This document shows positions 14,657 to 51,523 of a stretch of DNA of 64,000 bases, in pieces. The stretch's first letter is position 1. Each line of letters opens with the position of its first letter. Origin of the DNA: a virus (taxonomy: Duplodnaviria; Caudoviricetes). The translations under genes and the position numbers were made by a program. The stretch is from the IMG/VR virus record IMGVR_UViG_3300044212_000014, positions 10,272 through 74,271 of that record, one strand, 5' to 3'. The notes beneath the pieces are model-generated. The model ran no database searches and was not told where the DNA came from. It saw only the letters and a list, made by a program, of their open reading frames with translations.

Positions 14657-14657
14657 C

Positions 14658-16261: not shown

Positions 16262-16278
16262 TCAGCCTAGGAGGTTTT

Positions 16279-16800: not shown

Positions 16801-16809
16801 GAGAACGAT

Positions 16810-17376
16810 ATGTGTGTAACTAGAGTGCAACTATTTTTTATGGTAGCAGGATTCATTGCTGGTCTTGTGTCCCTATCTGGTGTTATATACCATCTTGTTA
16901 TGACATTTCGATGGAATGATATTGTAGCGTGGAGTGGTATGTTATCGTCTTATATTGTTTGAGGTATCCGACCTATTTAAGCCAGACTTTGAAGATAATG
17001 ACATGGAGGATAAATAATATGAAAGTACCAGAACATTACGTAGAATATTTCGAAAACAGAAGAAAAAGGTGTCGTTGTTTGCAAGTTAAAAAACTGCTTT
17101 ACCGTTAGGAAGTGCGCTATTGACCATCTGAGCAAAATGGGTGACTGGGCGATTAGAGATGCTTTCTCGGCATACTCCGCTAGCGTAGACGAAAATAAAC
17201 AGCAAAGAATCGGTATTGCTCATTTAGCCGACGGTGATATCTGGGACTCTCGCACTGGTCGTAAAGTGGCAAAGACGAAACTTGAAACGCACGTAAGTAA
17301 CTATTTCTTGAAAGTATTAGATAGCATTACCAATGATGCGTTACAGGTCGTAACTTGCTTTTTAACGGAGGTGTAG
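16810..17376 (+). pseudogene. Frameshifted copies of the two genes intact at 24579-24785 and 24787-25143
   Basis: Extra bases near 16949 and 17058 relative to copy 2 break both frames. Confidence 0.75.
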
Positions 17377-17380
17377 TCCA

Positions 17381-17674
17381 TTGAATGTTATTGGATATGA
17401 CAACTCAGGTAAGAAGAAAAAAGCGACGAAAGAAACGAACGAATGGTTTGACGAACATTACGGTGGAACAAGTGATGAAATTCAACCAATAGAATTTATG
17501 CAATCTCAATTTTCAGAAGAAGCGTTTGTTGGCGCTATCTTGTTTAATATAGTTAAGTACTCTTCACGGCTCGGGAAAAAGGATTCCCCTTTAGAGGAAG
17601 CGCGGAAGATACTACGATATTCCCAATGGTTAGTTAAGGTACTAGAGGGAGAAACAATAGACCCAAGGGTTTAA
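17381..17674 (+). CDS. DUF3310-like phage protein
   Basis: HYGG...IQPIEF...NIVKYSSRLGKKD...EARKILRY. Confidence 0.75.
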   Translation: MNVIGYDNSGKKKKATKETNEWFDEHYGGTSDEIQPIEFMQSQFSEEAFVGAILFNIVKYSSRLGKKDSPLEEARKILRYSQWLVKVLEGETIDPRV

Positions 17675-17705
17675 ATATAAAATTATGTTTTATTGAAGGG
17701 GGTTT

Positions 17706-18020
17706 TTGATGCCGAAGTTATTGGCAATCCTCTCACTATTATTCGTTTTCGCAATGCCCGTTTATGGGATGCAGGTTAGATGTACTGCATATACAACTAC
17801 TGAGAACACGGGCATTATGGCTAACGGTATGGAAGCGCAGGTCGGATATGTGGCTTGTGACTTCCTTCCCTTAGGTACTGTCATATACATAGACGGTGCT
17901 AGGTACATAGTAGGAGATAGGATAGGAGACGGAACAAACAACCATATTGATATTGTTTTTAACAGTTACGACGAAGCAATAAACTTTGGTGTGCAGTATT
18001 TAGATATGGAGGTAGCATAA
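17706..18020 (+). CDS. Secreted 3D-domain (MltA-like) protein
   Basis: Signal peptide; CTAYT, VACD, LPLGT, GDRIG, HIDI motifs. Confidence 0.8.
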   Translation: MMPKLLAILSLLFVFAMPVYGMQVRCTAYTTTENTGIMANGMEAQVGYVACDFLPLGTVIYIDGARYIVGDRIGDGTNNHIDIVFNSYDEAINFGVQYLDMEVA

Positions 18021-18821
18021 TTGAATGAGACGGACATGATAAGTAAAGCGTACCTACCTCACGTAATGAGGACTAGGGTTATTGGAGATAAAGGTGCGCT
18101 GGCTGTCTTATCTGATATACATGAGGGTGCAAACAACAGGAAATATTTACAAGATGCCGTGTCGTTCTTGTTATCGCTAGGGCCTCGATGTAAAGTTGTT
18201 ATCGGTGGAGATAGTACCAATACCATAACACGGAATAGCAAGGGAATACCTATCGAAGAATGGGCTAGCGGGGATAAACAAATATTTTCCCTCGTTGATG
18301 ATATAAAGCCATTGTATGACTCAGGACAGATCATAGGGATTACATCTGGTAATCACACGAGGAGAGCATATGACAGCACATTTATAACGATAGAAGCCAT
18401 GATCGCAAGCATACTGGGCGATAGGTCATTATATAAGGGTTCTATGGGTATTGTATATTTCAACGTAAATAAAAATTGTTACGTCCACCATATTTTACAT
18501 AAACATAGGGCTACGGAAGGTGCATATGATTTCTTCTCGGCAGACGCTAACTGGTTCGAGCATAAGCATAAGCCAATGGTTCGCCCTAAGATAATGATTG
18601 ACCATAACAAATATGAAAAGGTTCCCGTGGCTAAGAGATGTTGGGATATATACCAGTCTTCATTTCAGGATTATCCTGATTATGCCAAGGTCGCTGGATA
18701 TAGACCTAGTGTCCCCGGATTTTATATTTGCGAAATGAGCGGAGATATTCATAATAGATCGCTTACCCCATATATGGATGGAACGTACCACGCACTTATT
18801 AATGGCGGTTATGTGTTTTAA
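18021..18821 (+). CDS. Calcineurin-like metallophosphoesterase
   Basis: SDIHEG, GGD, SGNH, HKH metal-binding motifs. Confidence 0.75.
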   Translation: MNETDMISKAYLPHVMRTRVIGDKGALAVLSDIHEGANNRKYLQDAVSFLLSLGPRCKVVIGGDSTNTITRNSKGIPIEEWASGDKQIFSLVDDIKPLYDSGQIIGITSGNHTRRAYDSTFITIEAMIASILGDRSLYKGSMGIVYFNVNKNCYVHHILHKHRATEGAYDFFSADANWFEHKHKPMVRPKIMIDHNKYEKVPVAKRCWDIYQSSFQDYPDYAKVAGYRPSVPGFYICEMSGDIHNRSLTPYMDGTYHALINGGYVF

Positions 18822-18833
18822 GGAGAGAGTAAA

Positions 18834-19346
18834 ATGCCGAATTATCTTGATAGCCTAATAGATTCTTATGTTGATGATACGGAGCAAGATACGTACCAGT
18901 TACAAAAATATATCGTGGGCCTAATCGACAAATATTCTTCCGAACAGATAGATGGTAAAGAGGCGTGTCGTAGCATATCAAATATTACACGTCGAGACGA
19001 GTGGATACAGGACGTAAATAGTAATAGATTGAAAGAGAAAATAAAACAGAAATACTCGTTTGTCCGGTATGCAAAATCGCCTGAGGATATAATTATAGAG
19101 TGGGAAACCGCGGAAAAGATACTACATTTCCTTACGTGGTTACATTCTATAATTAATCACACTGATTGGTATATACTTACTCAGATGTCATTTAGGAAGA
19201 TACCAGCTACTATGTTAGCAAGAGAAATGAACATACCAAGGGACACGATATATAAAAGACTTTCCGTTGTTAGGAATGTGGCTAAAGAGTTTATGCCATA
19301 TTATGCGGAACAGTTCGGAGATATTAAAGAATATTTGGAGGACTAG
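18834..19346 (+). CDS. Sigma-region-4-like HTH transcription regulator
   Basis: C-terminal ATMLAREMNIPRDTIYKRL HTH. Confidence 0.55.
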   Translation: MPNYLDSLIDSYVDDTEQDTYQLQKYIVGLIDKYSSEQIDGKEACRSISNITRRDEWIQDVNSNRLKEKIKQKYSFVRYAKSPEDIIIEWETAEKILHFLTWLHSIINHTDWYILTQMSFRKIPATMLAREMNIPRDTIYKRLSVVRNVAKEFMPYYAEQFGDIKEYLED

Positions 19347-19468
19347 ACATGGACACGGTTAAAGCAGAAAAAGATTCTATAAAAGTATATGTATCAATAC
19401 CACCGTTAAGTTCTGTATAATAATATAACTAAAATAAAGGCAACAGTTCGTTAAAATGGAGGGAAAAT

Positions 19469-20821
19469 TTGAAAATATATAACGGCGATTGTATGGAATG
19501 CTTACTAATGATACCAGATAATAGCGTAGATGCTGTAGTTACTGATCCCCCTTATGAATTAGGATTCATGGGCAAAAAGTGGGACAAGACAGGGATAGCT
19601 AATAATGTAGACATGTGGCACGAAGTATTACGTGTTTTAAAACCGGGCGGTCACTTGCTGGCATTTGGGGGTACTCGACAGGTAAGAGTTATCTGTGTAC
19701 CCGACGGAATAAAGGACATGAACGACATGCTGGTAGCTGGCATAAATCCGGCAGATTTACCGTCAGAAGACATTAGTAAGTTTGTTTTGAGGCGCATCCT
19801 TAATAAATGTAAAACGATAGAGCAAGAGTACTCAAAAGCGGAAGAGTTTTTTAGGACAGTATCTAGTCAGCTTATAAAACTGGATATAATCCATATGTTA
19901 TCAGAACGCTGGGGGAAAGAGTTTGATGACCTAAAAAAGACATTCTCAGCAGTAGGTGAGGACACAGAATCCATATTACAAGAAGCGTCAAACGTAGATG
20001 ATTGTATCGCAGACCTACGACAGATATATGAGTCTGGGGGATACCCAACACACTTCCAACAAATTGATAACTGTATTCATAAGGTAGAAAAGAAACAAGT
20101 AGTTATCGTAGGGGCTTGTGCTGGTTGTGGTAAGTCTAACTTTGCTATAGAGTATATGTTAAGAGCTATATGCCACAATAAACAACGTGTTATATTCTTC
20201 TCTCTCGAAATGCCAAAGGGCAAACTCATGGAGAGAATAATTGCCCAGTTGTTAAAAGTGCCAGTTCCAGATGTAGAAAACTTAATATTACAGGGAAACC
20301 CGTTAGTATTAAAAATACTAGACCTGTTACGCAAGAAATTAATTGTGTTTGATGGTAACTCTATGGACATGGAAGGTATTGCGAGGAGAATAGATATCGT
20401 CAATGCCAAAGAACTTCTTGGTGGCCCAGTTGATATGGTGTTTGTTGATTACTTCGGCTATGTAAAGGGTACGTCTGATTTCGAGGGTGCGTCTAATGCC
20501 GCTAGGGAAATGAAGGGTATCGCGAAAAGTAGAAACATTATATTCGTTATGTTAAGCCAGTTAAACCGTAGTGGTAATGAATACAGCGAACCAACGATGC
20601 AACAGTTAAAACTTACGGGAGACTTAGAAGCGTCTGGAGATATCGTAATGTTATTGTGGCGACCAGAGAAAGACCCTAACTTAGCACTTGCTGATAGACA
20701 GGAGCTAGAGAATGTGACTAGGTTAAAGATATGCAAAGCCAGAGATGGTATGTATGGCTCCAATATGATACAGTTTAAGTATAACAAACAGGAATCACGA
20801 CTAGAAGAATGTTACATGTAG
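19469..20821 (+). CDS. Chimeric ORF at duplication junction: MTase N-terminus (70 aa) fused to primase-helicase C-terminus
   Basis: First 70 aa match 27236 MTase, remainder identical to 11070 protein from RQVRVICVP. Confidence 0.85.
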   Translation: MKIYNGDCMECLLMIPDNSVDAVVTDPPYELGFMGKKWDKTGIANNVDMWHEVLRVLKPGGHLLAFGGTRQVRVICVPDGIKDMNDMLVAGINPADLPSEDISKFVLRRILNKCKTIEQEYSKAEEFFRTVSSQLIKLDIIHMLSERWGKEFDDLKKTFSAVGEDTESILQEASNVDDCIADLRQIYESGGYPTHFQQIDNCIHKVEKKQVVIVGACAGCGKSNFAIEYMLRAICHNKQRVIFFSLEMPKGKLMERIIAQLLKVPVPDVENLILQGNPLVLKILDLLRKKLIVFDGNSMDMEGIARRIDIVNAKELLGGPVDMVFVDYFGYVKGTSDFEGASNAAREMKGIAKSRNIIFVMLSQLNRSGNEYSEPTMQQLKLTGDLEASGDIVMLLWRPEKDPNLALADRQELENVTRLKICKARDGMYGSNMIQFKYNKQESRLEECYM

Positions 20822-20877
20822 AAAAGACTTGACAAAACGTTAAAAATGTGGTATAATGTATTCATGGAGGTAAGGAA

Positions 20878-21540
20878 ATGCCATATACAATACCTGAGTT
20901 CGAAAATTACATATTATATGATAACCTAGATGTTTTTAGCAAGACGTCTGGTAGGTTTTTAAGCGCAGAGGTGGTAACACTGTGCAACGGCAAAACTAGA
21001 AAGCATTTTACTAGGAACTCTCTTAAGAAATATATCCCCATAGATGATAAGTATATTAAAATCCCTGGTTTTAACGGGGAATATGGGATATCAAAAGATG
21101 GTGAGGTTTATAGCTTTAAAACATTTAGGGTATTAAAATCATACCCCAACAAATATCGTCGCGGATATGTATATATCATACTGAGCCTCAATGGGAAACC
21201 AAAAACTTGCAAGGTACATAGGTTAGTAGCATTAACATACATACCAAATCCAAGTGGTAAGGAGTGCGTTAACCATATTAATGGAAATGTACAGGATAAC
21301 AGTGTCGATAATTTGGAATGGTGTACAGTTAAAGAAAACAACCTTTGGAATGTTAGTAGAGGCGTTGCTAATGGTGGTAACCATAAAAAATGTTATCTAT
21401 ACACCAAGTCCGGAGAGTTTGTTGGTTCGTTTCGCTCTATTAGAAAGGCTAGCGAATACGTCAAGTCTATTGGGTGTAGCGGATATGATGATATTAGGAA
21501 ATTAAAATATAATAAATATTACACGTTGGAGGTGCGTTAA
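20878..21540 (+). CDS. NUMOD4/HNH homing endonuclease (copy 2)
   Basis: Identical protein to 13109. Confidence 0.88.
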   Translation: MPYTIPEFENYILYDNLDVFSKTSGRFLSAEVVTLCNGKTRKHFTRNSLKKYIPIDDKYIKIPGFNGEYGISKDGEVYSFKTFRVLKSYPNKYRRGYVYIILSLNGKPKTCKVHRLVALTYIPNPSGKECVNHINGNVQDNSVDNLEWCTVKENNLWNVSRGVANGGNHKKCYLYTKSGEFVGSFRSIRKASEYVKSIGCSGYDDIRKLKYNKYYTLEVR

Positions 21541-22425
21541 TTGCCACTAAGTAGCTATTTTTGTCCCGACGGCGGGAGAATCAAAATTGAAGATTGTTTA
21601 AAAGAATGTAGATTAAAAGGTAAGATGAACCCAATAACCGGAATGGACTATGTTACTTGCGGGAGGTGTTTATCTATACCGACATTAAGAGCCGTTTCCG
21701 AACAGAGAAGTTGGACTGGCAAACCATCCACTACTCAGTTGTTACGAGGAACGAGAGAGGCATATTTAACTCTTACGAGAGAATATGCAATCGACCCCAA
21801 AAGTATGATGTTTGCTCTTCACGGCACAAACACTCATGCGAGACTCGAAGACGGCATGTCAGAAGAGGACTTGGGGGAACAGCGGCTGGATGACGGAGTG
21901 TCCACTGGAGCATTTGACTACTACTCAGATGAAGACGGGGGAACGCTATTCGACTATAAGACGTACTCTTCATATGTTTGTGGAAAGTATATGGGAATAG
22001 GGAGCAGGAAGGAACTAATAGGCCATTACAAGAATGGTAAACCTAGATTTCAGTCAGTAAGAACTTATGGTAATGCAAAGCACGACCTAGACCTAGCCAT
22101 ACAGTTAAACGATTACCGGATGAAAATACAAAAGGTTCTTAAAAAGCCAGTAGCAAACATGGTTTGTGAGATGATTGTAAGAGACGGTGGCACGTATATG
22201 GCTAAGAATAGAGGGGTAGATGATACTGCATACCTCATTAAGGTTGGTAAAATAAGTGATATTTGGGTTGAGAGGTATATGAAACGAAAAGCAAACGATT
22301 TAATTTCTGCGCTAGAAACTGGGAGAATGCCGCCACCATGCAGACCACATGAATGCTGGCACGGTAGAAAATGCAGAGACTTCTGCCCAGTTAATATGTA
22401 TTGTGACGCATACAAAGGAGAATAA
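21541..22425 (+). CDS. Cas4-like PD-(D/E)XK exonuclease (copy 2)
   Basis: Identical protein to 13772. Confidence 0.65.
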   Translation: MPLSSYFCPDGGRIKIEDCLKECRLKGKMNPITGMDYVTCGRCLSIPTLRAVSEQRSWTGKPSTTQLLRGTREAYLTLTREYAIDPKSMMFALHGTNTHARLEDGMSEEDLGEQRLDDGVSTGAFDYYSDEDGGTLFDYKTYSSYVCGKYMGIGSRKELIGHYKNGKPRFQSVRTYGNAKHDLDLAIQLNDYRMKIQKVLKKPVANMVCEMIVRDGGTYMAKNRGVDDTAYLIKVGKISDIWVERYMKRKANDLISALETGRMPPPCRPHECWHGRKCRDFCPVNMYCDAYKGE

Positions 22426-22426
22426 C

Positions 22427-22693
22427 ATGGATAAAGACATCTTAGCAGAATTTGAGAAAGAATTAAAGTCTGGTATTAAAATTGGGATTAACATGAAAGA
22501 GAATAACGACAAGGTTGAGTGTGGCATTATCGGTGATAAAGAGTATTCTCCTCAGCTTGTACTAACCTTGTTGATCATCTCCATTGCTAATCTTATGCAG
22601 ATAGACCCAAGCGATCTGTTAGACGCGTGTGTTTCTGCTCGCAAGAAAGATGGTATTGACTTGTCAGACCAGTTCGAACATCTTATTAACTAA
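22427..22693 (+). CDS. Hypothetical protein (copy 2)
   Basis: Identical to 14658. Confidence 0.6.
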   Translation: MDKDILAEFEKELKSGIKIGINMKENNDKVECGIIGDKEYSPQLVLTLLIISIANLMQIDPSDLLDACVSARKKDGIDLSDQFEHLIN

Positions 22694-23355
22694 TGGATGA
22701 GTGCGAAGTAAGAAGTAATTGTAGGAAGAGTTATGATTGCGATTGGTGCGATTACTATAGCGAATATTCCCCAATAAACATTAATATTAAATGCAAAAGA
22801 CAGATAGAAAATACAAAAATTCGTAGAGAGCAGAGGAAAGTGAAAAGAATTTCCGATGCCTCTAAGAGGGGAAGGTCAAACAGAAGGAACGGACGTAAGG
22901 CAGAACGAGACGTTGAAAATCTATTAAACGAACTGGGGTTAGATGCCTCAAGAACTCCTATGTCCGGCGCACTTAAAACAGCAAACCTCATACCTCAATT
23001 AAAAGACCATGTGTCCGGTGATATAAGAATAAAGTATTTAGACAAAGAGCTTATAGTTGAATGCAAAAGGAATATTCATTCGGATAGTTGGTATAAACTT
23101 ACAGAAAAAGGTTTAATACATATAGATGGGTTTTGCTATGGTCTTACAAAAGAGTTATTCGAATATTTGGTAAACGGACTACTAAGTGGGGAATGTATTG
23201 ATATCCCAGACAACAAATTTAAGATGTTGCATAAATATTTCGACCAAGATAACTCAGATATCGTCGTTGTTACTAGGCCATGGCACGACCCCCTGTTCTT
23301 CTTAAAAGAAAAAACATTTGAATTATTCGGAGGTAATATAAATCATGATAAGTAG
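22693..23355 (+). CDS. Holliday-junction resolvase-like nuclease (copy 2)
   Basis: Identical to 14924. Confidence 0.65.
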   Translation: MDECEVRSNCRKSYDCDWCDYYSEYSPININIKCKRQIENTKIRREQRKVKRISDASKRGRSNRRNGRKAERDVENLLNELGLDASRTPMSGALKTANLIPQLKDHVSGDIRIKYLDKELIVECKRNIHSDSWYKLTEKGLIHIDGFCYGLTKELFEYLVNGLLSGECIDIPDNKFKMLHKYFDQDNSDIVVVTRPWHDPLFFLKEKTFELFGGNINHDK

Positions 23356-23593
23356 CGAAAATAGAATGTCGAGAATTGAACCTACGTCGCTTTATATCTC
23401 TAGCGTTAGCGAGAAAGACCAGCATGGAATTGACCGTTTAGTCGCAACTCGCATTATGGCTTTAAATGCAACGACTCCTAAGCCTATCGTGGTAAAGACG
23501 TTCGCTATCGGAGACTTTGACAACGGGGTAAAAATAGAAACTTCCGAACGTCTTTTGGAAGTAACTAAAGATGCCATGGAGGATATAGGATAA
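23345..23593 (+). CDS. Hypothetical protein (copy 2)
   Basis: Identical to 15576. Confidence 0.55.
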   Translation: MISSENRMSRIEPTSLYISSVSEKDQHGIDRLVATRIMALNATTPKPIVVKTFAIGDFDNGVKIETSERLLEVTKDAMEDIG

Positions 23594-24030
23594 TGCCTCC
23601 GGCATATGAAGAGTTGGTAAGCCAATTCGAAGAAATAAAGTATAGATACGAACAACTCACGGATACAGATGTGTTAGAGGCATTCTCTCTCATGAGAGAT
23701 TCCTCTTCACTACTGGCAAGTTACGACACGATGGTAGCGGAGTCATACAAACTAACGGCACTTACCGAAAGACAAGCTAGGGCGGTAGAGGCCAGAAAAA
23801 GTATAGAACTTTCTGTTAAACCGACGGAAGGCGCGAGAAGAGCAACCGCTGATGAAGAAGTCGTATCGGCGTGGAATAAATATATATCGGTAGCTACAAG
23901 TCAGAAATATATAGAAGCCAACGCAAAGTTCCTTAGTAGAGTATATTTCGATGCCAAGATGATAACTGAGAATTGTTATCGAAAGGAAAGGCCGGCAGTA
24001 GGAACAGACCGTATTGTTGGTAGAACGTAA
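23593..24030 (+). CDS. Hypothetical protein (copy 2)
   Basis: Identical to 15824. Confidence 0.6.
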   Translation: MPPAYEELVSQFEEIKYRYEQLTDTDVLEAFSLMRDSSSLLASYDTMVAESYKLTALTERQARAVEARKSIELSVKPTEGARRATADEEVVSAWNKYISVATSQKYIEANAKFLSRVYFDAKMITENCYRKERPAVGTDRIVGRT

Positions 24031-24047
24031 TCAGCCTAGGAGGTTTT

Positions 24048-24569
24048 ATGCCAAGAACAAGAAAAAATGAAACTTATTCTGTAGATGATTTAAAAGTAAC
24101 TAAATATGAACCATATACGCCAGAGGCCCCGAAGGTGAAGGTAAAGTTTATAAAAGAAAGACCCGACTCTAAGGCTCCTGAATATAAGACGGATGGCTCG
24201 TTTGCTTTTGACCTGTACTCCGATAGGGACTGTACTGTTGTTGGTAATAAACCTACACTAATTTCTTTGGGGGTAAAAGTTGAAATTCCATCTGGATATG
24301 GTATGTTAATTATTCCTAGGTCATCCATTGGGAGCAAAACTCCCCTTCGTCAGTCAAATTCAGTTGGCCTAATTGATAGTGATTACCGTGGTGTTGTTAT
24401 GGTAATGTATGAATCAAACAGAGATATTGCTGGTTCGACTATAGTTCGTAGAGGGGATAGAATAGCGCAGGGATTTCTAATCCCATATGTAAATGTTGAC
24501 TTTGTAGAAGCAGACGAATTAAGCGAGACAGAAAGGGGTACTGGTGGATTTGGTTCCACTGGTAGATAG
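24048..24569 (+). CDS. dut: Trimeric dUTPase (copy 2)
   Basis: Identical protein to 16279. Confidence 0.95.
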   Translation: MPRTRKNETYSVDDLKVTKYEPYTPEAPKVKVKFIKERPDSKAPEYKTDGSFAFDLYSDRDCTVVGNKPTLISLGVKVEIPSGYGMLIIPRSSIGSKTPLRQSNSVGLIDSDYRGVVMVMYESNRDIAGSTIVRRGDRIAQGFLIPYVNVDFVEADELSETERGTGGFGSTGR

Positions 24570-24578
24570 GAGAACGAT

Positions 24579-24785
24579 ATGTGTGTAACTAGGATGCAAC
24601 TATTTTTTATGGTAGCAGGATTCATTGCTGGTCTTGTGTCCCTATCTGGTGTTATATACCACCTTATTATGACTTTCGAATGGAATGATATTGTTGCATG
24701 GGGCGGTATGTTATCGTTTATATTGTTTGAGGTATCAGACCTATTTAAACCAGAATTTGAAGATAATGACATGGAGGATAAATAA
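24579..24785 (+). CDS. Small two-TM membrane protein
   Basis: GGAG RBS; intact version of the frameshifted copy 1 gene. Confidence 0.6.
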   Translation: MCVTRMQLFFMVAGFIAGLVSLSGVIYHLIMTFEWNDIVAWGGMLSFILFEVSDLFKPEFEDNDMEDK

Positions 24786-24786
24786 T

Positions 24787-25143
24787 ATGAAAGTACCAGA
24801 ACATTACGTAGAATATTTCGAAAATGAAGAAAAAGGTGTCGTTGTTTGTAAATTAAAAAACTGCTTTACCGTTAGGAAGTGCGCTATTGACTATCTCAAC
24901 AAAATGGGTGATTGGGCAATTAAAGACGCTTTCGCGGCATACTCCGCTAGCGTAGATGAAAATAAACAGCAGAAAATCGGTATTGCTCATTTAGCCGACG
25001 GTGATATCTGGGACTCTCGCACTGGTCGTAAAGTGGCAAAGACGAAACTTGAAACGCACGTAAGTAATTATTTCTTGAAAGTATTAGATAGTATTACCAA
25101 CGATGCTTTACAGGTGGTTACTTACTTTTTAACGGAGGTGTAA
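24787..25143 (+). CDS. Hypothetical phage protein
   Basis: GGAGG RBS; intact version of the frameshifted copy 1 gene. Confidence 0.6.
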   Translation: MKVPEHYVEYFENEEKGVVVCKLKNCFTVRKCAIDYLNKMGDWAIKDAFAAYSASVDENKQQKIGIAHLADGDIWDSRTGRKVAKTKLETHVSNYFLKVLDSITNDALQVVTYFLTEV

Positions 25144-25147
25144 TCCA

Positions 25148-25441
25148 TTGAACGTTATCGAATATGACAACTCAGGTAAGAAGAAAAAAGCGACGAAAGA
25201 AACGAACGAATGGTTTGACGAACATTACGGTGGAACAAGTGATGAAATTCAACCGATAGAATTTATGCAATCTCAATTTTCAGAAGAAGCGTTTGTTGGC
25301 GCTATCTTGTTTAATATAGTTAAGTACTCTTCACGGCTCGGGAAAAAGGATTCCCCTTTAGAGGAAGCGCGGAAGATACTACGATATTCCCAATGGTTAG
25401 TTAAGGTACTAGAGGGAGAAACAATAGACCCAAGGGTTTAA
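25148..25441 (+). CDS. DUF3310-like protein (copy 2)
   Basis: Near identical to 17381. Confidence 0.75.
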   Translation: MNVIEYDNSGKKKKATKETNEWFDEHYGGTSDEIQPIEFMQSQFSEEAFVGAILFNIVKYSSRLGKKDSPLEEARKILRYSQWLVKVLEGETIDPRV

Positions 25442-25472
25442 ATATAAAACTATGTTTTATTGAAGGGGGTTT

Positions 25473-25787
25473 TTGATGCCGAAGTTATTGGCAATCCTCT
25501 CACTATTATTCGTTTTCGCAATGCCCGTTTATGGGATGCAGGTTAGATGTACTGCATATACAACTACTGAGAACACGGGCATTATGGCTAACGGTATGGA
25601 AGCGCAGGTCGGATATGTGGCTTGTGACTTCCTTCCCTTAGGCACTGTCATATACATAGACGGTGCTAGGTACATAGTAGGAGATAGGATAGGAGACGGA
25701 ACAAACAACCATATTGACATTGTTTTTAACAGTTACGACGAAGCAATAAACTTTGGTGTGCAGTATTTAGATATGGAGGTAGCATAA
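25473..25787 (+). CDS. Secreted 3D-domain protein (copy 2)
   Basis: Identical protein to 17706. Confidence 0.8.
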   Translation: MMPKLLAILSLLFVFAMPVYGMQVRCTAYTTTENTGIMANGMEAQVGYVACDFLPLGTVIYIDGARYIVGDRIGDGTNNHIDIVFNSYDEAINFGVQYLDMEVA

Positions 25788-26588
25788 TTGAATGAGACGG
25801 ACATGATAAGTAAAGCGTACCTACCTCACGTAATGAGGACTAGGGTTATTGGAGATAAAGGTGCGCTGGCTGTCTTATCTGATATACATGAGGGTGCAAA
25901 CAACAGGAAATATTTACAAGATGCCGTGTCGTTCTTGTTATCGCTAGGGCCTCGATGTAAAGTTGTTATCGGTGGAGATAGTACCAATACCATAACACGG
26001 AATAGCAAGGGAATACCTATCGAAGAATGGGCTAGCGGGGATAAACAAATATTTTCCCTCGTTGATGATATAAAACCACTATATGATTCAGGACAGATTA
26101 TAGGGATTACATCTGGTAATCACACGAGGAGAGCATATGACAGCACGTTTATAACGATAGAAGCCATGATCGCAAGCATACTGGGCGATAGGTCATTATA
26201 TAAGGGTTCTATGGGTATTGTATATTTCAACGTAAATAAAAATTGTTACGTCCACCATATTTTACATAAACATAGGGCTACGGAAGGTGCATATGATTTC
26301 TTCTCGGCAGACGCTAACTGGTTCGAGCATAAGCATAAGCCAATGGTTCGCCCTAAGATAATGATTGACCATAACAAATATGAAAAGGTTCCCGTGGCTA
26401 AGAGATGTTGGGATATCTACCAGTCTTCATTTCAGGATTATCCTGATTATGCTAAGGTAGCAGGGTATAGGCCCAGTGTTCCGGGATTTTATATTTGCGA
26501 AATGAGCGGAGATATTCATAATAGATCGCTTACCCCATATATGGATGGAACGTACCACGCACTTATTAATGGCGGTTATGTGTTTTAA
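25788..26588 (+). CDS. Metallophosphoesterase (copy 2)
   Basis: Identical protein to 18021. Confidence 0.75.
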   Translation: MNETDMISKAYLPHVMRTRVIGDKGALAVLSDIHEGANNRKYLQDAVSFLLSLGPRCKVVIGGDSTNTITRNSKGIPIEEWASGDKQIFSLVDDIKPLYDSGQIIGITSGNHTRRAYDSTFITIEAMIASILGDRSLYKGSMGIVYFNVNKNCYVHHILHKHRATEGAYDFFSADANWFEHKHKPMVRPKIMIDHNKYEKVPVAKRCWDIYQSSFQDYPDYAKVAGYRPSVPGFYICEMSGDIHNRSLTPYMDGTYHALINGGYVF

Positions 26589-26600
26589 GGAGAGAGTAAA

Positions 26601-27113
26601 ATGCCGAATTATCTTGATAGCCTAATAGATTCTTACGTAGATGACACGGAGCAAGACACGTATCAATTACAAAAATATATCGTGGGCCTAATCGACAAAT
26701 ATTCTTCCGATAAGATAGATGGTAAAGAGGCGTGTCGTAGTATATCAAATATTACACGTCGAGACGAGTGGATACAGGACGTAAATAGTAATAGATTGAA
26801 AGAGAAAATAAAACAGAAATACTCGTTTGTCCGGTATGCAAAATCGCCTGAGGATATAATTATAGAGTGGGAAACCGCGGAAAAGATATTACATTTTCTT
26901 ACATGGTTACATTCTATAATTAATCACACTGATTGGTATATACTTACTCAGATGTCATTTAGGAAGATACCAGCTACTATGTTAGCAAGAGAAATGAACA
27001 TACCAAGGGACACGATATATAAAAGACTTTCCGTTGTTAGGAATGTGGCTAAAGAGTTTATGCCATATTATGCGGAACAGTTCGGAGATATTAAAGAATA
27101 TTTGGAGGACTAG
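26601..27113 (+). CDS. Sigma-region-4-like HTH regulator (copy 2)
   Basis: Differs from 18834 at EQ/DK. Confidence 0.55.
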   Translation: MPNYLDSLIDSYVDDTEQDTYQLQKYIVGLIDKYSSDKIDGKEACRSISNITRRDEWIQDVNSNRLKEKIKQKYSFVRYAKSPEDIIIEWETAEKILHFLTWLHSIINHTDWYILTQMSFRKIPATMLAREMNIPRDTIYKRLSVVRNVAKEFMPYYAEQFGDIKEYLED

Positions 27114-27235
27114 ACATGGACACGGTTAAAGCAGAAAAAGATTCTATAAAAGTATATGTATCAATACCACCGTTAAGTTATGTATAATAATATAACTAAA
27201 ATAAAGGCAACAGTTCGTTAAAATGGAGGGAAAAT

Positions 27236-28267
27236 TTGAAAATATATAACGGCGATTGTATGGAATGCTTACTAATGATACCAGATAATAGCGTAGATGC
27301 TGTAGTTACTGATCCCCCTTATGAATTAGGATTCATGGGCAAAAAGTGGGACAAGACAGGGATAGCTAATAATGTAGACATGTGGCACGAAGTATTACGT
27401 GTTTTAAAACCGGGCGGTCACTTGCTGGCATTTGGGGGTACCCGTACATATCATCGTATGGCATGTGCCATTGAGGATGCAGGATTTGAAATCCGTGACC
27501 AACTACAGTGGATTTATGGCAGTGGATTTACAAAGTCCATGGATATTAGCAAGGCGATTTATAAAAAAGCTGGGATATGGAGAGGAAAAGCGGGCAACGT
27601 AATCTCTAAAAATGGTTCTATGAGCGCACCAAATTATGAACGGACACCAAAAGTGGAGCCTATTACTGAACTTGCTAAACAATGGAACGGATTTGGCACA
27701 GCTCTTAAGCCTGCAAACGAGCCTATCTGTCTTGCTCGTAAGCCGCTGACTAAAAAAAGTGTTGTAGATAATATACTGAGATACGGTACCGGAGGCATTA
27801 ATATTGACGGGTGTCGAATACCCACTACGCAACTGCACGTTCAAAAAGCAAAAGGTTCTAATGGGACTCAGGGGATATACGGCGACTTTAATACCATGGG
27901 TGTATATGCCCCCAACCCACACGGTAGATTCCCGTCGAACGTTATACTCGACGAAAACGCATCACAACTTTTAGATGCGCAGACAGGAACTCTTAAAAGC
28001 CGATTTTTTTACTGTGCAAAGGCTTCACGGAAGGAACGTGACCAAGGACTTGACGACCACAACAATCATCCGACAGTAAAGCCTGTAGACCTTATGCGAT
28101 ATTTAGTTAGCCTTGTTACAAAAGAAGGGCAAGTCGTTCTTGATCCGTTTATGGGTAGTGGGACAACTGGGGTTGCTTGTGTGTTAAATCATAGAGATTT
28201 TATAGGGATAGATAAAGACAAGCATTATTGTGATATTGCCGAAAGGCGCATCGCCTATTCTATATAG
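27236..28267 (+). CDS. N6A/N4C DNA methyltransferase (beta class)
   Basis: DPPY near N-terminus, HPTVKP, LDPFMGSGTTG near C-terminus. Confidence 0.92.
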   Translation: MKIYNGDCMECLLMIPDNSVDAVVTDPPYELGFMGKKWDKTGIANNVDMWHEVLRVLKPGGHLLAFGGTRTYHRMACAIEDAGFEIRDQLQWIYGSGFTKSMDISKAIYKKAGIWRGKAGNVISKNGSMSAPNYERTPKVEPITELAKQWNGFGTALKPANEPICLARKPLTKKSVVDNILRYGTGGINIDGCRIPTTQLHVQKAKGSNGTQGIYGDFNTMGVYAPNPHGRFPSNVILDENASQLLDAQTGTLKSRFFYCAKASRKERDQGLDDHNNHPTVKPVDLMRYLVSLVTKEGQVVLDPFMGSGTTGVACVLNHRDFIGIDKDKHYCDIAERRIAYSI

Positions 28268-42613: not shown

Positions 42614-42623
42614 TTTAATCATC

Positions 42624-42692
42624 CTCCCTCATCAGTGCCATATAGCCTATGGCATACGTGAGAGTATGCGTCTCCTCTTCACGTTTCGGGAA
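42624..42692 (-). ncRNA. Type II hammerhead ribozyme A
   Basis: Minus strand: TTCCC-GAAA-C-stem III-GTA/cleavage-TGCCATA ggcta TATGGCA-CTGATGA-GGGAG. Confidence 0.85.
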
Positions 42693-44531: not shown

Positions 44532-44771
44532 TTAATTATTCCTTTCTTGAAAACGGCATCCAAAACTGAAATATGTTTTATGTGAAGAAATTTCTATAAA
44601 CCTAACTGGCTTATAAAAACCAGTACGATGTCTAAAACCTATAGCACCTAGACGAGCAAGTTCTTTTTTTGTAAGTAACTGCCCTTCTACTACCGGAATG
44701 TGAGATACACAAACCGCGTTTTTGTTTTTTGTGATGATAACTCCATCCGTCATGATTTTATAATATTTCAT
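44532..44771 (-). CDS. Hypothetical protein directly downstream of hammerhead B
   Basis: GAGGAGG SD before MKYYKI. Confidence 0.55.
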   Translation of the reverse strand: MKYYKIMTDGVIITKNKNAVCVSHIPVVEGQLLTKKELARLGAIGFRHRTGFYKPVRFIEISSHKTYFSFGCRFQERNN

Positions 44772-44790
44772 TTTAACTCCTCCTCTACCT

Positions 44791-44864
44791 ATCTCATCAG
44801 TGTATAGCCAGTAACCGCTATACAGACAGGGCAAATGCCCTGTTTCGATTCGCCCACCTGTCAC
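44791..44864 (-). ncRNA. Type II hammerhead ribozyme B
   Basis: ATC-GAAA-C-AGGGC attt GCCCT-GTC/cleavage-TGTATAGC ggttactg GCTATACA-CTGATGA-GAT; loop GTTAC can pair with upstream GTGAC. Confidence 0.85.
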
Positions 44865-45011
44865 GTAGGAAGTCTTTCTGTAAATTCAATTTTCAAAGAA
44901 CAGGTGTTCGCGTGGGAAACAACCCACGTTCCCGTTTTCATACTGGTTACATTCTCAGTAATAGCAAGTTACTATTACCTATCCGACCACTGCCGGACTT
45001 TCTATGGCTCT

Positions 45012-45040
45012 ATTATACAACCCTTGATTCAACTTGTCAA
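45012..45040 (-). promoter_or_regulatory. Early sigma70 promoter
   Basis: TTGACA-17-TATAAT with TG. Confidence 0.8.
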
Positions 45041-45099
45041 GCAAATCTTTTTTGAATGTAGACTGTCGCTATCTGCCGTTTCTACACCGGGAGATTTAC

Positions 45100-45160
45100 T
45101 GGTTTGTCTCGTCAGTATACAGAGAACCATTCTGTATATACGGGCATTGCCCGTTTCGAC
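45100..45160 (-). ncRNA. Type II hammerhead ribozyme C
   Basis: GTC-GAAA-C-GGGC aat GCCC-GTA/cleavage-TATACAGA atggttc TCTGTATA-CTGACGA-GAC; loop TGGTT pairs with downstream AACCA. Confidence 0.88.
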
Positions 45161-45177
45161 CTCTACCTTTCTCCTTC

Positions 45178-46395: not shown

Positions 46396-47832
46396 ATGGA
46401 TAATAAAGTAGTAATGGCGAAGCTGTTTAGTGACGCTAAGAAAGACTTATTGTTATTCAGAAAGGTTTTCCTTCCAGTCCCCGGAAAAGAATTACCAACG
46501 CCGGAATACCAGAAAGAATGGGGCAATGTATTAATACGAGGAGAGCATCATTACGCGGTCGAGGGCTATCGTGAGTCTGGCAAGTCCAGTTTAGTACTCA
46601 GGGCCTTTCCACTACACTGTTTAACATACCCATCCAAGAAGAACCAATACATTGTATTCATTATGGCAAACCAATCCAGCGCCAGTAAGAGGCTAAAGGA
46701 AATCGAGACAGAATGGTTACATGACGAATTACTTTCGATGAATTTAGTTAGGGTAGTAGAGCAATCCGCTACTGGTTTCGAAGTTATTGTAAAAGATGAT
46801 AATGGAGAAGAAATGTGGGTACGGCTAGAGGCCTATGGTAAGGGTTCCGCAGTCCGTGGATTATTGGTACATGATTGTCGTCCCTCGCTCGTTCTGATTG
46901 ATGACCCGCAAGATACGGACGATAGCAAGTCTGACACGGTACAAGAAAACGACTGGGAATGGTTCTTATCTGACATCCTGTTTCTAGGGAAAGAAACCCG
47001 TATATTTCTAATTGGGAATAACTTAGGTGAGAAATGCCTAATAGAACGGATTATTGAGAACCAGAAAGACCTTGGGTTTGTAGGGGTACGTATTCCCATA
47101 CTTGATATGGAGGGTAATAGTGTATGGCCTGAACGGTGGAGTACTGAGGATGTCATAGCAGAACGAGAAAGTATGAGGCGTATTGGGAAGTTAGATGTAT
47201 GGGAACGGGAGAAAATGTGCCTAGCTATTTCCCCAGAAAGCCAATTATTCCGTAAAGAGTACTTCCGTTACTACGAACCGCAGAATCTTCATATCCGAGA
47301 CTTAAATGTATTCACTACGGTCGATTTAGCCATCTCTAAAAAAGAAACAGCCGACTATACAGTAGTATGTACAATCGGCGTAAATGCGGATAATCAATGG
47401 TTCCTGTTAGATGTCCAATTCGGAAGATGGGATCCCTCGGAAAGTATGGATCATATATTCGAAGCGGTAACACGGTATAAGCCCTTATACGTAGGGATAG
47501 AAAAGGTAGCATACCAAGCGGCGTTATCTCACTTTATTGAAAAGGAAATGCCTAAGCGTAATATATTCTTTACGACAAAGGACTTGGAAGCGAAAGAGAA
47601 GAAAGAAGAACGTATTAAAGCAATACAACCTAGGTTCAAAGCTGGTACTGTTATGTTTGCTAAAGGAGCTAGTTACCTAGGAGAATTGGAAAGTGAACTG
47701 TTAGCTTTCCCGAAGTCTCTACATGATGATTTGATTGATGCACTGGCATATCAAGATCAGATTTACTTCGCTCCCGTAAGCTCATTTGAAAAAGTGGAAG
47801 GGGAACAAATACCCCTAGCAGGAGCTATGTAA
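46396..47832 (+). CDS. terL: Terminase large subunit
   Basis: GYRESGKS Walker A, LIDDPQD Walker B, TVDLA, GIEKVAYQ, HDDLIDALAY. Confidence 0.92.
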   Translation: MDNKVVMAKLFSDAKKDLLLFRKVFLPVPGKELPTPEYQKEWGNVLIRGEHHYAVEGYRESGKSSLVLRAFPLHCLTYPSKKNQYIVFIMANQSSASKRLKEIETEWLHDELLSMNLVRVVEQSATGFEVIVKDDNGEEMWVRLEAYGKGSAVRGLLVHDCRPSLVLIDDPQDTDDSKSDTVQENDWEWFLSDILFLGKETRIFLIGNNLGEKCLIERIIENQKDLGFVGVRIPILDMEGNSVWPERWSTEDVIAERESMRRIGKLDVWEREKMCLAISPESQLFRKEYFRYYEPQNLHIRDLNVFTTVDLAISKKETADYTVVCTIGVNADNQWFLLDVQFGRWDPSESMDHIFEAVTRYKPLYVGIEKVAYQAALSHFIEKEMPKRNIFFTTKDLEAKEKKEERIKAIQPRFKAGTVMFAKGASYLGELESELLAFPKSLHDDLIDALAYQDQIYFAPVSSFEKVEGEQIPLAGAM

Positions 47833-47838: not shown

Positions 47839-47867
47839 TTGACAAAACCTGATTTATATGATATAAT
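47839..47867 (+). promoter_or_regulatory. Sigma70-type promoter for tRNA operon
   Basis: TTGACA-17-TATAAT with TG. Confidence 0.85.
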
Positions 47868-48197: not shown

Positions 48198-48271
48198 TGC
48201 GGGGTATTTTAATGGCAGAATACTAGGCTCATTCCCTAGTGACGAGTGTTCGACTCGCTCTCCCGCAACCA
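48198..48271 (+). tRNA. trnM: tRNA-Met(CAT), initiator-like
   Basis: TGCGGGG/TCCCGCA-A-CCA acceptor like fMet; CTAGG-ctCATtc-CCTAG. Confidence 0.85.
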
Positions 48272-48272
48272 T

Positions 48273-48347
48273 GCTTGTGTGGCGCAATGCTAGCGCAACT
48301 GACTTGTAATCAGTAGGTTGAAAGTTGGAATCTTTCCACAAGCTCCA
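48273..48347 (+). tRNA. trnT: tRNA-Thr(TGT)
   Basis: ACTGA-ctTGTaa-TCAGT; atypical T-loop TTGGAAT and D-loop lacking GG. Confidence 0.8.
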
Positions 48348-48350
48348 TAC

Positions 48351-48425
48351 ACCTTGGTAGTTCAATGGTAGAGCGCCTGACTGTTAATCAGGAAGTTGTA
48401 GGTTCGAATCCTACCCTTGGTGCCA
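48351..48425 (+). tRNA. trnN: tRNA-Asn(GTT)
   Basis: CCTGA-ctGTTaa-TCAGG; two U-U mismatches in acceptor stem. Confidence 0.85.
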
Positions 48426-48428
48426 CAT

Positions 48429-48502
48429 AGGGGAGTCGTTCAATGGCAGGACATGAGACTTTGACTCTCAGAATCTTAGTTCAATTCTAAGTTCCCCTTC
48501 CA
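48429..48502 (+). tRNA. trnQ: tRNA-Gln(TTG)
   Basis: TGAGA-ctTTGac-TCTCA; encoded CCA. Confidence 0.88.
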
Positions 48503-48745
48503 AAATGGAGGAATAAAAGTCGGCATTCCTCAGCTATAATGAGTGATGTAGCACGGTTATGGTACTGCACTACAGATGGCTAAACCTACAGTGATGTCAT
48601 CATGGGCGCCGCCCCTAATAGTCGAGGGATAAAAGCAGACTAACGATACGTACATCGGGACTTATATTGTATGTCTGATCTATAGACGGACTTGATGTGG
48701 TCTTGATTTCCTTTTGGAGGGTTAGCGGGTTAAATGCCTCCCCCA
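48503..48745 (+). ncRNA. Candidate structured RNA within tRNA array, ending in a CCA microhelix
   Basis: 243-nt insert among tRNAs otherwise 1-4 nt apart; several hairpins; GGAGG/CCTCC-C-CCA end. Confidence 0.45.
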
Positions 48746-48746
48746 T

Positions 48747-48833
48747 GGATGATTGGCAGAATGGCTATTGCAACTGTCTTGAAAACAGTCAAACCGAAAG
48801 GTTTTGTGGGTTCGAATCCTACATCATCCTCCA
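48747..48833 (+). tRNA. trnS: tRNA-Ser(TGA)
   Basis: ACTGT-ctTGAaa-ACAGT; long variable arm. Confidence 0.9.
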
Positions 48834-48837
48834 ACAT

Positions 48838-48923
48838 GTTAGGGTGGGCGAGTGATTAATGCCAGCAGTCTGTAAAACTGCCCTCTTCGGAGTTCGTAAG
48901 TTTGAATCTTACCCCTAGCACCA
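48838..48923 (+). tRNA. trnY: tRNA-Tyr(GTA)
   Basis: GCAGT-ctGTAaa-ACTGC; long variable arm; T-loop TTTGAAT. Confidence 0.88.
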
Positions 48924-48926
48924 CAT

Positions 48927-49003
48927 ACTAGACTGGTGCAACTGGCAGACACAATGGTCTTAGAAGCCATAAAGTAAGGGTTCGAATCCCTTGTCTAGTA
49001 CCA
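48927..49003 (+). tRNA. trnL: tRNA-Leu(TAG), short variable loop
   Basis: ATGGT-ctTAGaa-GCCAT, 5-nt variable loop AAAGT. Confidence 0.9.
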
Positions 49004-49360: not shown

Positions 49361-51523
49361 TTGAGTTTTATCCAAAATAACAGTAATCCTTCGCTCGACC
49401 AAATAGACACGAGCCTTGTTACTGCGGTACAAAGAGACATACAAGACGCAGAGGATTACCAAACTGCGGTAATTCTTCCTACCGTGAAAGAACGGTATGA
49501 GATATACTATGCGGATAAAGACTATTACGCTAGGAAATTCCCTAAACTGTCTAAAGTATCCTCTTTGGTATCCACTGACGTAACAGATACAATCGAATGG
49601 GCGTTACCATCTCTTACTAAGGTATTTACGCAAGGTGACGAGATTGTTACGGTACAAGGCGTAACAGAAGAAGATGACCGTAACGCTGATGTCATGCAGG
49701 AATTGCTGAAATACCAGCTACAGCGCCAGAATAGGTTCTTCCCAATCCTATATAACTGGATGAAAGATGCTTTGATTACTGGTATGGGCATTATAAAATG
49801 CTACTGGGAACGTAAAGAAGACACACAGTTGATGGAACAGTCCATGAACTTACGCGCTTTCCAGCAGTTATCTCAGTCTGGGGTACAAATCCAGTCCGTT
49901 GATGGCCCTGACCAGTTCGGTATATTCAGAGTACAGTATTATTCCCCATATTACGTAAAAAACGCTCCAATGATAGAGAATATACTGGTATCGGAGTTGC
50001 TTTATTCATCAGATGCCAAGACTCTCGATGAAGCTAATTTCGTAGCTCACAAGAAGAAAGTTACTATGAGTTACCTTCGCGAACGAGAACAGCAGGGAAT
50101 TTACGCCAATATAGACCAAATAACTCCCAAGCCCATTAATTCATTCGTATATGACGACGAAGTTGAAATGGTTATTGGTGATAACTACCAAGGCATGAGC
50201 CGTGAGGCTGATGACGCGAGAGCAGAGGTAGTAATTTACGAATGCTATACAAAGCTCGACTGGAATAACGATGGTGTACTGGAAGACCTGATTGTAACGA
50301 TTTGTGATGACGTTATCCTTCGGGTAGAGCCGAATTACATGGGTAGACATCCATTCTTCTCTATCTCACCAACGAAAGACCCTCACCGCATCTGGGTTAA
50401 GCGTTCTTACGCCGAACTAATTGGGGAGCTACAGGACTTAAAAGTAGCCCTGACTCGTCAGATTGTGCAGAATATATCGCTTACAAACGACCCTAAAATG
50501 ATATTATCGGAAGATTCTATCAATATTAAGGATTATGTAGACGGTAGGGCAGTTATTCGGAAGAAAGCAAACCAGCCAATGAATGACGTGGCTATGGCTA
50601 TGCCAGTAAACCAATTAAGCCCGTATACATATCAATTCCTTGAATATATCGAAGGCCAGAAGGAAAATCGTACTGGTATTACTCGGTATAACCAAGGTTT
50701 AGACGCGAATACCTTGAATAAAACCGCTACGGGCATCTCCGCTATCTTAGGACAAAGCTCACAACGGTTAGAGTTAATAGCGAGAATGTTTGCTGAAACT
50801 GGATTCTACGAACTATTCCGCTTTTTGATTGGTTTAAATCAGCGGTTTATGGATCAGGGAACAGTAATTCGGCTAACAAATAAAGAATTAAAGATAAGTC
50901 CTGATGATTTACAGGGTAACTTTGATTTGATTGTAAATTCTGGTATCTCAATGGCTAGCAAACAGGAAACACAGCTTACACTACAGACAATGATGACTGC
51001 GCTAATGCAGGCAAGAGCATCTGGGCTTCCTATTTGTACGCCAGAAAACATATACAACTTGTTTAAGAAATGGATTGAATCTGCTGGCCTTAGAAATTAT
51101 GCGGACTATATCACGGAACCTGCCCTAGTAGGACAGAGGATGATGATAGAAGAACAGTTAAAGATGCAGGTATTGGCATCACTACCGCCTCAAGCAACGC
51201 AAATGTATATGGAAACTGGAGTGTTACCACCGCAGGTATTACTACAGTTGCCGCCTGAATTACAAGCGCTGTTCGGTAGCGGTTATCCGACAGACGGAGG
51301 AATGAATAGTGGACAAAACGGAGCTGGAATACAAAACGGAGTTGGAGTCCCAACAACGCCTAATGCAGGCAATGGAGCTGTCCGACAAAGCAGAAATAAC
51401 GCTGGAAGTGGCGGACAAATGGTTGGAGGACTATCAAGGGTGGATAACAAACAGCCTCAAAACGTGCCAAGACAATCAGGTAATGGGCCTTCGCAACCTT
51501 CTAGTGGTGTCGGAGGCTTTTAA
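49361..51523 (+). CDS. Portal protein
   Basis: 720 aa after TerL; DTIEWALPSL, ALITGMGIIKCYW, TGITRYNQG, KTATGI; low-complexity tail. Confidence 0.88.
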   Translation: MSFIQNNSNPSLDQIDTSLVTAVQRDIQDAEDYQTAVILPTVKERYEIYYADKDYYARKFPKLSKVSSLVSTDVTDTIEWALPSLTKVFTQGDEIVTVQGVTEEDDRNADVMQELLKYQLQRQNRFFPILYNWMKDALITGMGIIKCYWERKEDTQLMEQSMNLRAFQQLSQSGVQIQSVDGPDQFGIFRVQYYSPYYVKNAPMIENILVSELLYSSDAKTLDEANFVAHKKKVTMSYLREREQQGIYANIDQITPKPINSFVYDDEVEMVIGDNYQGMSREADDARAEVVIYECYTKLDWNNDGVLEDLIVTICDDVILRVEPNYMGRHPFFSISPTKDPHRIWVKRSYAELIGELQDLKVALTRQIVQNISLTNDPKMILSEDSINIKDYVDGRAVIRKKANQPMNDVAMAMPVNQLSPYTYQFLEYIEGQKENRTGITRYNQGLDANTLNKTATGISAILGQSSQRLELIARMFAETGFYELFRFLIGLNQRFMDQGTVIRLTNKELKISPDDLQGNFDLIVNSGISMASKQETQLTLQTMMTALMQARASGLPICTPENIYNLFKKWIESAGLRNYADYITEPALVGQRMMIEEQLKMQVLASLPPQATQMYMETGVLPPQVLLQLPPELQALFGSGYPTDGGMNSGQNGAGIQNGVGVPTTPNAGNGAVRQSRNNAGSGGQMVGGLSRVDNKQPQNVPRQSGNGPSQPSSGVGGF

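Follow-up and report, generated by a model that had tools for sequence, protein, structure and literature searches.

In the genome of an uncultivated phage we found two complete type II hammerhead ribozymes, B and C, on the same (minus) strand, which bracket 314 nt holding a perfect promoter and a folded leader rather than a gene. Such a pair is unusual, and in its layout it is an uncommon variation on the hammerhead clusters reported for phages in 2011. The explanation that we favour, and hold to be probable though well short of assured, is that these hammerheads trim early transcripts without help from the host, leaving linear RNAs with hairpin ends, the 314-nt RNA being the piece between the two cuts. 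That piece is most likely a linear processing by-product and not a circular RNA. The phage record is a 74-kb IMG/VR entry and the window, i.e. the whole stretch of 64,000 nt analysed here, is a part of it.

Hammerhead B occupies 45098..45161 on the minus strand with a predicted cut between 45139 and 45138, and hammerhead C occupies 44783..44850 with a cut between 44825 and 44824; stem II is open in both. A third type II hammerhead on this strand, A, was located at 42618..42691 (cut between 42655 and 42654). Searches of ~100-nt (101-nt) segments with Rfam model RF02276 (Hammerhead_II, gathering score 37 bits) scored C above gathering (39.4 bits, E 2.5e-7), and B (32.6 bits, E 1.6e-5) and A (23.7 bits, E 0.0036) below it. 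Larger Rfam scans, of the window, of 3.5 kb or of the whole genome, missed all three hammerheads through their speed filters, and the 100-nt searches recover them all. The structural scanner detected exactly three hammerheads in the window, on one strand and within 2.5 kb, for a background of 0-2 matches per ~170 kb of shuffled sequence (both strands), and it placed H17 at 45139 for B and 44825 for C.

With stems III and I in parentheses and the cut marked by a slash, the minus strand of B reads GUC-GAA-(ACGGGC AAU GCCCGU)-A/-(UAUACAGA ... UCUGUAUA)-CUGACGA-GAC, and that of C reads AUC-GAA-(ACAGGGC AUUU GCCCUGU)-C/-(UGUAUAGC ... GCUAUACA)-CUGAUGA-GAU. The catalytic cores of all three ribozymes are complete (CUGACGA/GAAA/GUA in B, CUGAUGA/GAAA/GUC in C and CUGAUGA/GAAA/GUA in A), each with a G after the heptamer and a C before GAAA. 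Stems III, I and II measure 6, 8 and 3 bp in B, 7, 8 and 3 bp in C, and 9 (with one bulge), 7 and 4-6 bp in A. The canonical three-way junction is the minimum-energy fold of B and of C; for A it appeared only in the centroid fold, the minimum-energy fold being an alternative structure. In most type II members, loop I and the 3′ tail form a pseudoknot of at least 4 bp (PMC3088659). In B it is formed by five Watson-Crick pairs (UGGUU/AACCA), while that of C (UUACU/GGUAG), with two G-U among its 5 bp, is weaker. Both share one register, stem II followed by A and 5 nt as described for the family, with the UGGCU/GGCCA pseudoknot of a hammerhead from the related phage L002. No convincing pseudoknot was found for A, whose 3′ stem II strand GGGAG lies within the Shine-Dalgarno sequence GGGAGG of a 62-aa gene starting at 42622. 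Judged by sequence, B and C are real ribozymes and co-oriented, and their self-cleavage is predicted.

Stems I of B and C resemble each other in a strand-swapped manner (UAUACAG/CUGUAUA and UGUAUAG/CUAUACA, respectively). This likeness was considered as the basis of a hybrid hammerhead and discarded, as no valid one can form, and we treated it as shared ancestry. Among ten IMG/VR relatives with terminases 72-79% identical, a hammerhead close to the terminase gene was found in just two, L001 and L002; each has a single, C-like copy located between two genes. Compared to C, these copies show two compensatory pairs in stem III, and their stem I and pseudoknot are fully re-paired. In both phages the hammerhead is followed by a terminator-like hairpin with a U-run (GGAACG...CGUUCC UUUUUU) just before the next Shine-Dalgarno sequence (L001:4170-4200 and L002:4385-4414, minus strand). 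The scanner was negative for three complete relatives and for the Veillonella prophage described below, and early genes are essentially unrelated among the relatives. A MAFFT alignment of five hammerheads of this phage group (mean column identity 65%), in which B and C agree mainly at the core, was structurally wrong for A and B; hence no covariance model was derived from these five local hammerheads.

Exact-protein look-ups identified two near-identical strain variants in other samples. The whole unit is kept in them with 2-4 SNPs, and hammerhead stems and cores are unchanged across the three samples. The only difference in B is an A/C polymorphism at H17, a position which tolerates both bases, and another SNP (position 44920) affects a loop, that of the third leader hairpin. 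P1, one of the promoters described next, is also kept except for spacer changes. Since the variants are only ~1% divergent, this retention says nothing on selection.

Four promoters are stacked ahead of the first gene of the leftward unit: one at 45641, then P1 (45277..45305, TTGACA-17-TAAGAT, 10/12 consensus positions), P2 (45178..45206, TTGACA-17-TAGAAT, TG-extended, 11/12) and P3 (45012..45040, TTGACA-17-TATAAT, sigma-70, 12/12), the last three on the minus strand. A previous interpretation of this DNA, hereafter the sequence-only reading, had placed promoters at 45178 and 45277 upstream of both hammerheads and on their strand, and these are indeed present as P2 and P1; it overlooked P3, which is inside the B-C interval. 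Because P3 lies there, the majority of the RNA that gets to hammerhead C is probably initiated within the interval, and with this perfect promoter the interval has a function at the DNA level. The −10 element of P2 ends 20 nt ahead of the GAAA of hammerhead B, and promoter geometry would put the P2 start ~13 nt upstream of that GAAA. Hammerhead A is preceded by a promoter at 42834-42806. Thus promoters scoring at least 11/12 lie 20, 165 and 118 nt upstream of B, C and A respectively, the last distance being counted from the −10 element. In the window as a whole, 17 near-consensus promoters (TTGACA-N17-TATAAT with at most one mismatch) were counted against ~1 expected; all 17 point with the local genes, and eight of the window's promoters, P3 included, are 12/12 matches. 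As far as these motifs tell, the phage relies on host-type promoters.

Terminase (46396-47832) and portal (49361-51523) genes lie on the plus strand of the window, and a run of small genes, mostly without any family, extends on the minus strand from ~45.6 kb down to ~29.5 kb. A syntenic prophage-like relative was found inside a 247-kb contig of Veillonella sp. VA139 (NZ_RQVL01000001.1, ~13-53 kb; loci L161-L163), with a portal ~66-71% identical and many other genes matched. Because of this relative and of a similar GC content (39.7% for the phage, 36-40% on the Veillonella side), a Veillonella-like host is likely. Several other features of the window are worth recording. Seven tRNA genes (Met, Thr, Asn, Gln, Ser, Tyr, Leu; 48198-49003, plus strand) are located between terminase and portal and preceded by a perfect promoter (47839-47867). 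At 5415-5868 (plus strand), downstream of two perfect promoters (5248 and 5374), a tRNA-Leu(UAA) is directly followed by an 84-nt element in which only the tRNA-like ends agree with the tmRNA model (76 bits; 13 nt stand in place of 304 internal model positions, and ARAGORN made no call), and then by an EGFOA RNA motif at 5763-5868 (61.6 bits). A tandem duplication of ~7.8 kb (11894-19685 and 19663-27452) doubles a plus-strand gene block together with one consensus promoter. It consists of two blocks, 11894-16925 with 99.6% identity to its copy at offset 7769 and 17335-19685 with 97.9% identity at offset 7767. Relatives measure ~65 kb compared to 74 kb here, and the duplication may be real or an artefact of mixed-strain assembly.

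The inter-ribozyme interval (44825..45138, minus strand) is composed of the 3′ two-thirds of B, a 60-nt spacer, P3, a ~155-nt leader with three hairpins and the 5′ third of C. Its folding energy is −89.6 kcal/mol (z −3.3 versus shuffled sequences; −2.1 for the leader alone), and the leader hairpins, at 44998-44981, 44979-44957 and 44928-44911, are present in minimum-energy and centroid folds. The longest ORFs on the same strand encode 33 and 26 aa, the latter being the longest counted within the pair (ORF cover 0.30). Both were rejected as genes: neither has a Shine-Dalgarno sequence and the 33-aa ORF starts within hammerhead B. Antisense ORFs of 152 and 130 aa running across the interval were also rejected; they are Cys/Leu/Ser-rich and the 152-aa one has no Pfam match. 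With co-oriented ribozymes and no terminator-like site predicted between them, transcripts that start at the upstream promoters and read through should release a discrete RNA of 314 nt bearing 5′-OH and 2′,3′-cyclic phosphate ends. RNAs ending at the C cut should thus come in two sizes, 314 nt (5′-OH, read-through) and ~181 nt (5′-triphosphate, from P3). Much of the sequence-only reading holds at this point. The two tandem hammerheads that it described as excising 314 nt, 45138 to 44825, have exactly these ends according to the scanner, its hairpins (TCCG/CGGA, GTAATAG/CTATTAC and CGTGGG/CCCACG) appear in the folds, and the interval, which it took to be devoid of a convincing ORF, contains none above 33 aa on the same strand. 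Termination between C and B, which it had named as a refuter, finds no predicted site between the hammerheads.

No Rfam family matched the interval, and blastn revealed no homologue in INPHARED or in the records of five relatives, with only promoter-like matches of 15-40 nt. Similarly, the exact P3 string had no match in IMG/VR. The interval occurs once in the phage genome, where no complementarity longer than 12 nt was detected as an antisense target for its RNA. The first gene after hammerhead C (44532..44771, minus strand) encodes 79 aa without Pfam or PHROG match, and its Shine-Dalgarno sequence GGAGG lies at 44783-44779. We also considered an anti-Shine-Dalgarno switch, in which the leader CUUCC (CCUCC in the strain variants) could pair with GGAGG, and rejected it, as the Shine-Dalgarno sequence is unpaired in folds both before and after cleavage. 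Finally, a 14-nt direct repeat, GAGA(A/T)AGGTAGAGG, was found at the outer edges of the pair, in copies 13/14 identical and 378 nt apart. The left copy (GAGAAAGGTAGAGG, 45160..45173, minus strand) is directly 5′ of hammerhead B, and the right copy (GAGATAGGTAGAGG, 44782..44795, minus strand) shares bases with the last part of CUGAUGA, with stem II and with the pseudoknot tail of hammerhead C. The exact 9-mer AGGTAGAGG has only three occurrences in the window. This repeat could be the footprint of a cassette insertion at Shine-Dalgarno-like microhomology, or chance. Until transcription reaches the tail of C, loop I of this hammerhead could also pair with the GGUAG of the upstream copy.

We compared this pair with a set of 120 IMG/VR loci retrieved with a generic type II pattern, in which 187 hammerheads passed the stem checks. 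Same-strand tandem pairs are common in this set. In all 34 other non-redundant pairs spaced by 150-500 nt, the interval is filled by a single small ORF, which starts 4-124 nt (mostly 10-35 nt) past one ribozyme and ends at the next. ORF cover in these pairs is 0.64-0.97 (median 0.88) compared to 0.30 here, and none of their intervals contains a consensus promoter. B-C is therefore the only one of 35 pairs without a gene and with a promoter in its interval. Likewise, a promoter of at least 11/12 within 200 nt upstream was found for 0/183 sampled type II hammerheads, a sample which includes hosts with other promoter types, versus 3/3 here. In the phage contigs L099, L044, L074, L107 and L152, as many as nine type II hammerheads share one orientation, with one at each gene boundary, and they are often near-identical copies within one genome.

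A simple model of B and C would involve leader processing and insulation. They would be two of three active-looking hammerheads in the 5′ leaders of leftward small-gene units, whose early timing is presumed from gene content and promoter density. Host RNA polymerase would start at 45641, P1, P2 and P3, and each hammerhead would fold and cut as the RNA emerges. Whichever promoter fired, C would set the 5′ end of the mature first mRNA, with a 5′-OH, a terminal 8-bp stem I hairpin and a free Shine-Dalgarno sequence 42 nt downstream of the new end. B would sever transcripts from 45641, P1 or P2 off the P3 unit. The upstream RNA, including the mRNA of an 83-aa gene (45566-45315), would then end in the stem III hairpin with a 2′,3′-cyclic phosphate. 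As the P2 −10 element ends 20 nt before GAAA, B would also trim a piece of ~32 nt off the 5′ end of P2 transcripts, the start being placed as above. The 314-nt RNA would be the linear leftover of both cuts on read-through, P3 transcripts would give ~181 nt with the same 3′ end, and the main job of the interval would be to carry P3 and the leader. In this model we infer in vivo activity, transcription starts and effects on RNA stability.

The location of hammerheads exactly at gene boundaries in the 34 other pairs matches the processing role proposed in PMC3088659. Two observations argue against the model: the interval folds better than shuffled sequence, and hammerhead scores are below gathering for B and far below it for A. 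Moreover, C alone would mature the downstream mRNA. What B would contribute to that gene is thus not obvious, and either the interval RNA or the upstream 3′ end may have a function of its own. In Bacillota, a 5′-OH can target RNA to RNase J1, with glmS as a precedent; hence stabilisation of the processed RNA would not be assured.

One alternative, which we think unlikely, is that the 314-nt RNA and/or the ~181-nt P3-to-C RNA is a functional linear non-coding RNA (sponge, decoy or regulator), made early in large amounts from four stacked promoters with hairpin-protected defined ends. B, dispensable for the downstream mRNA, may then exist to set the 5′ end of this RNA, and three stable hairpins, a folding energy below that of shuffled sequences and the gene-less interval, unique among the 35 pairs, fit this proposal. 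On the other hand, the RNA has no homologue in relatives or INPHARED and no Rfam family, its complementarity to the phage genome never exceeds 12 nt, and ~30 nt of the interval are explained by the promoter. Three independent samples keep the unit and show no change in hammerhead stems or cores; however, at ~1% divergence this is uninformative, and one SNP breaks the terminal pair of a predicted long-range helix. A bolder form receives little credence from us. In it the hammerheads are promoter-proximal devices which, as infection starts, would make the 314-nt and/or ~181-nt species as a defined, abundant and protein-free RNA that acts on host RNA-end surveillance, repair or decay; if true, in B-C the product and not the cut would be the point, a first among phage hammerhead pairs. 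The 14-nt repeat brings in a different possibility, namely that the B-C unit is a DNA-level 'promoter moron' cassette, inserted or duplicated by recombination at Shine-Dalgarno-like microhomology, B being a functionless passenger. We regard it as rather improbable, and it is compatible with, not exclusive of, processing and insulation. The repeat (13/14) sits exactly at the outer borders of the pair, and recombination between its copies would join P2 to a normal Shine-Dalgarno sequence and start codon. But it was noticed after the fact, and its right copy, being also stem II and pseudoknot tail of C, is otherwise constrained. Hammerheads are distributed sporadically in the phage group: this phage has three and L001 and L002 have one apiece, against none in the prophage and in three complete relatives. 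This pattern speaks for the cassette, as do the almost wholly unrelated early genes of the relatives and a similar GATAGG motif which, in L001 and L002, borders the hammerhead or a gene that was inserted. Yet core and pseudoknot of B are both perfect, the unit is present in all three strain variants, and no variant without it was found: the gene-start string matched only an unrelated AT-rich phage in IMG/VR.

The sequence-only reading had also seen in the excised RNA a discrete species with ligatable ends, possibly circular and akin to retrozymes. The discrete 314-nt species agrees with the ribozymes and the lack of a predicted terminator, while the circular form is not supported, in the lack of an end-joining helix and of RtcB. 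Hammerhead cleavage leaves 5′-OH and 2′,3′-cyclic phosphate ends, which are the right chemistry for RtcB-type ligation. Circularisation, whether by a ligase of the host or through reversal of the hammerhead reaction, would make this a retrozyme- or viroid-like phage circular RNA, with a junction reading ...GCCCTGTC/TATACAGA..., and we judge this highly improbable. A hybrid hammerhead in which C supplies stem III and GUC, and B supplies stem I, the pseudoknot and CUGACGA, would still have a 2-bp stem II: GAC of B and AUC of C form two pairs (GA/UC) and a C-A mismatch. This stem must however close ~250 nt, and enforcing it costs 5.6 kcal/mol compared to the circular minimum-energy fold, in which two end hairpins flank the junction. 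The ends thus sit in separate hairpins, the 5′ end in stem I of B and the 3′ end in stem III of C, and no other helix joins the two terminal regions in linear or circular folds. As for the ligase, a check of host rtcB had been proposed: neither the phage nor the Veillonella sp. VA139 genome has RtcB (PF01139), and 25/25 genomes of Veillonella, a host genus that was assigned indirectly, lack it too; the same search matched 10/14 reference genomes used as control. RNA_ligase family PF09414 is also absent from the phage. B and C are non-identical copies, unlike those of retrozymes, the single-copy interval gives no sign of repeats or retrotransposition, and spliced or circular products were sought for clustered phage hammerheads and none detected (PMC3088659).

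Phage genomes contain thousands of hammerheads. In nearly all reported clusters, and in 34/34 sampled pairs, they bracket small genes, so that operon cutting is inseparable there from other ideas. The B-C locus separates them: B is unexplained by maturation of a coding message, and A, B and C are located directly behind consensus promoters. These ~600 bp are thus a compact test case for 5′-end remodelling or insulation versus 3′-end formation versus production of a non-coding RNA. If only the ordinary reading holds, the locus is one more well-documented example with an unusual layout.

Compared to known systems, the pair shares with retrozymes two hammerheads that would release a non-coding RNA of a few hundred nt with 5′-OH and 2′,3′-cyclic phosphate ends. 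In retrozymes and viroid-like circular RNAs, studied by de la Pena and co-workers, the hammerheads are near-identical type I or III copies, an open helix pairs the monomer ends and a host tRNA ligase or RtcB is needed (PMC4918200, PMC7761336). Unlike these, B and C are non-identical type II copies, their hybrid open helix has 2 bp, and the likely host genus lacks RtcB. A functional analogy, and this only, may be drawn with devices which tidy up 5′ ends. In phage T7, RNase III processing sites lie behind the tandem early promoters A1-A3, and ribozyme insulators such as RiboJ are synthetic examples. As in these, a stack of strong host-type promoters is followed here by a cleavage signal that would generate a uniform hairpin 5′ end; unlike with T7 RNase III, cleavage would be autocatalytic and leave 5′-OH and cyclic phosphate.

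The nearest counterparts are the natural clusters of Perreault et al. 2011 (PLoS Comput Biol, PMC3088659), where phage and prophage hammerheads flank genes and processing of long transcripts was proposed. Similarly to these, several type II hammerheads are co-oriented within a few kb of a phage operon (here three in 2.5 kb), B and C are a few hundred nt apart, and they possess a short open stem II, a helix often as short as 2 bp in natural examples (PMC3088659), with a loop I/tail pseudoknot. In Desulfovibrio vulgaris, the type II hammerheads loc 2 and loc 3 lie 313 nt apart on the same strand of a phage-like region; all three hammerheads of this bacterium cut themselves when transcribed in vitro, and their ends were detected in vivo by cyPhyRNA-seq, with thin data for loc 2 (PMC8782182). 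The spacing of B-C is nearly the same (314 versus 313 nt) and the host phylum differs. In contrast to the 2011 clusters, in which the interval is one small gene, the B-C interval carries a perfect promoter and no gene, the block of small genes being held by the C-A interval, and all three ribozymes follow promoters, not stop codons.
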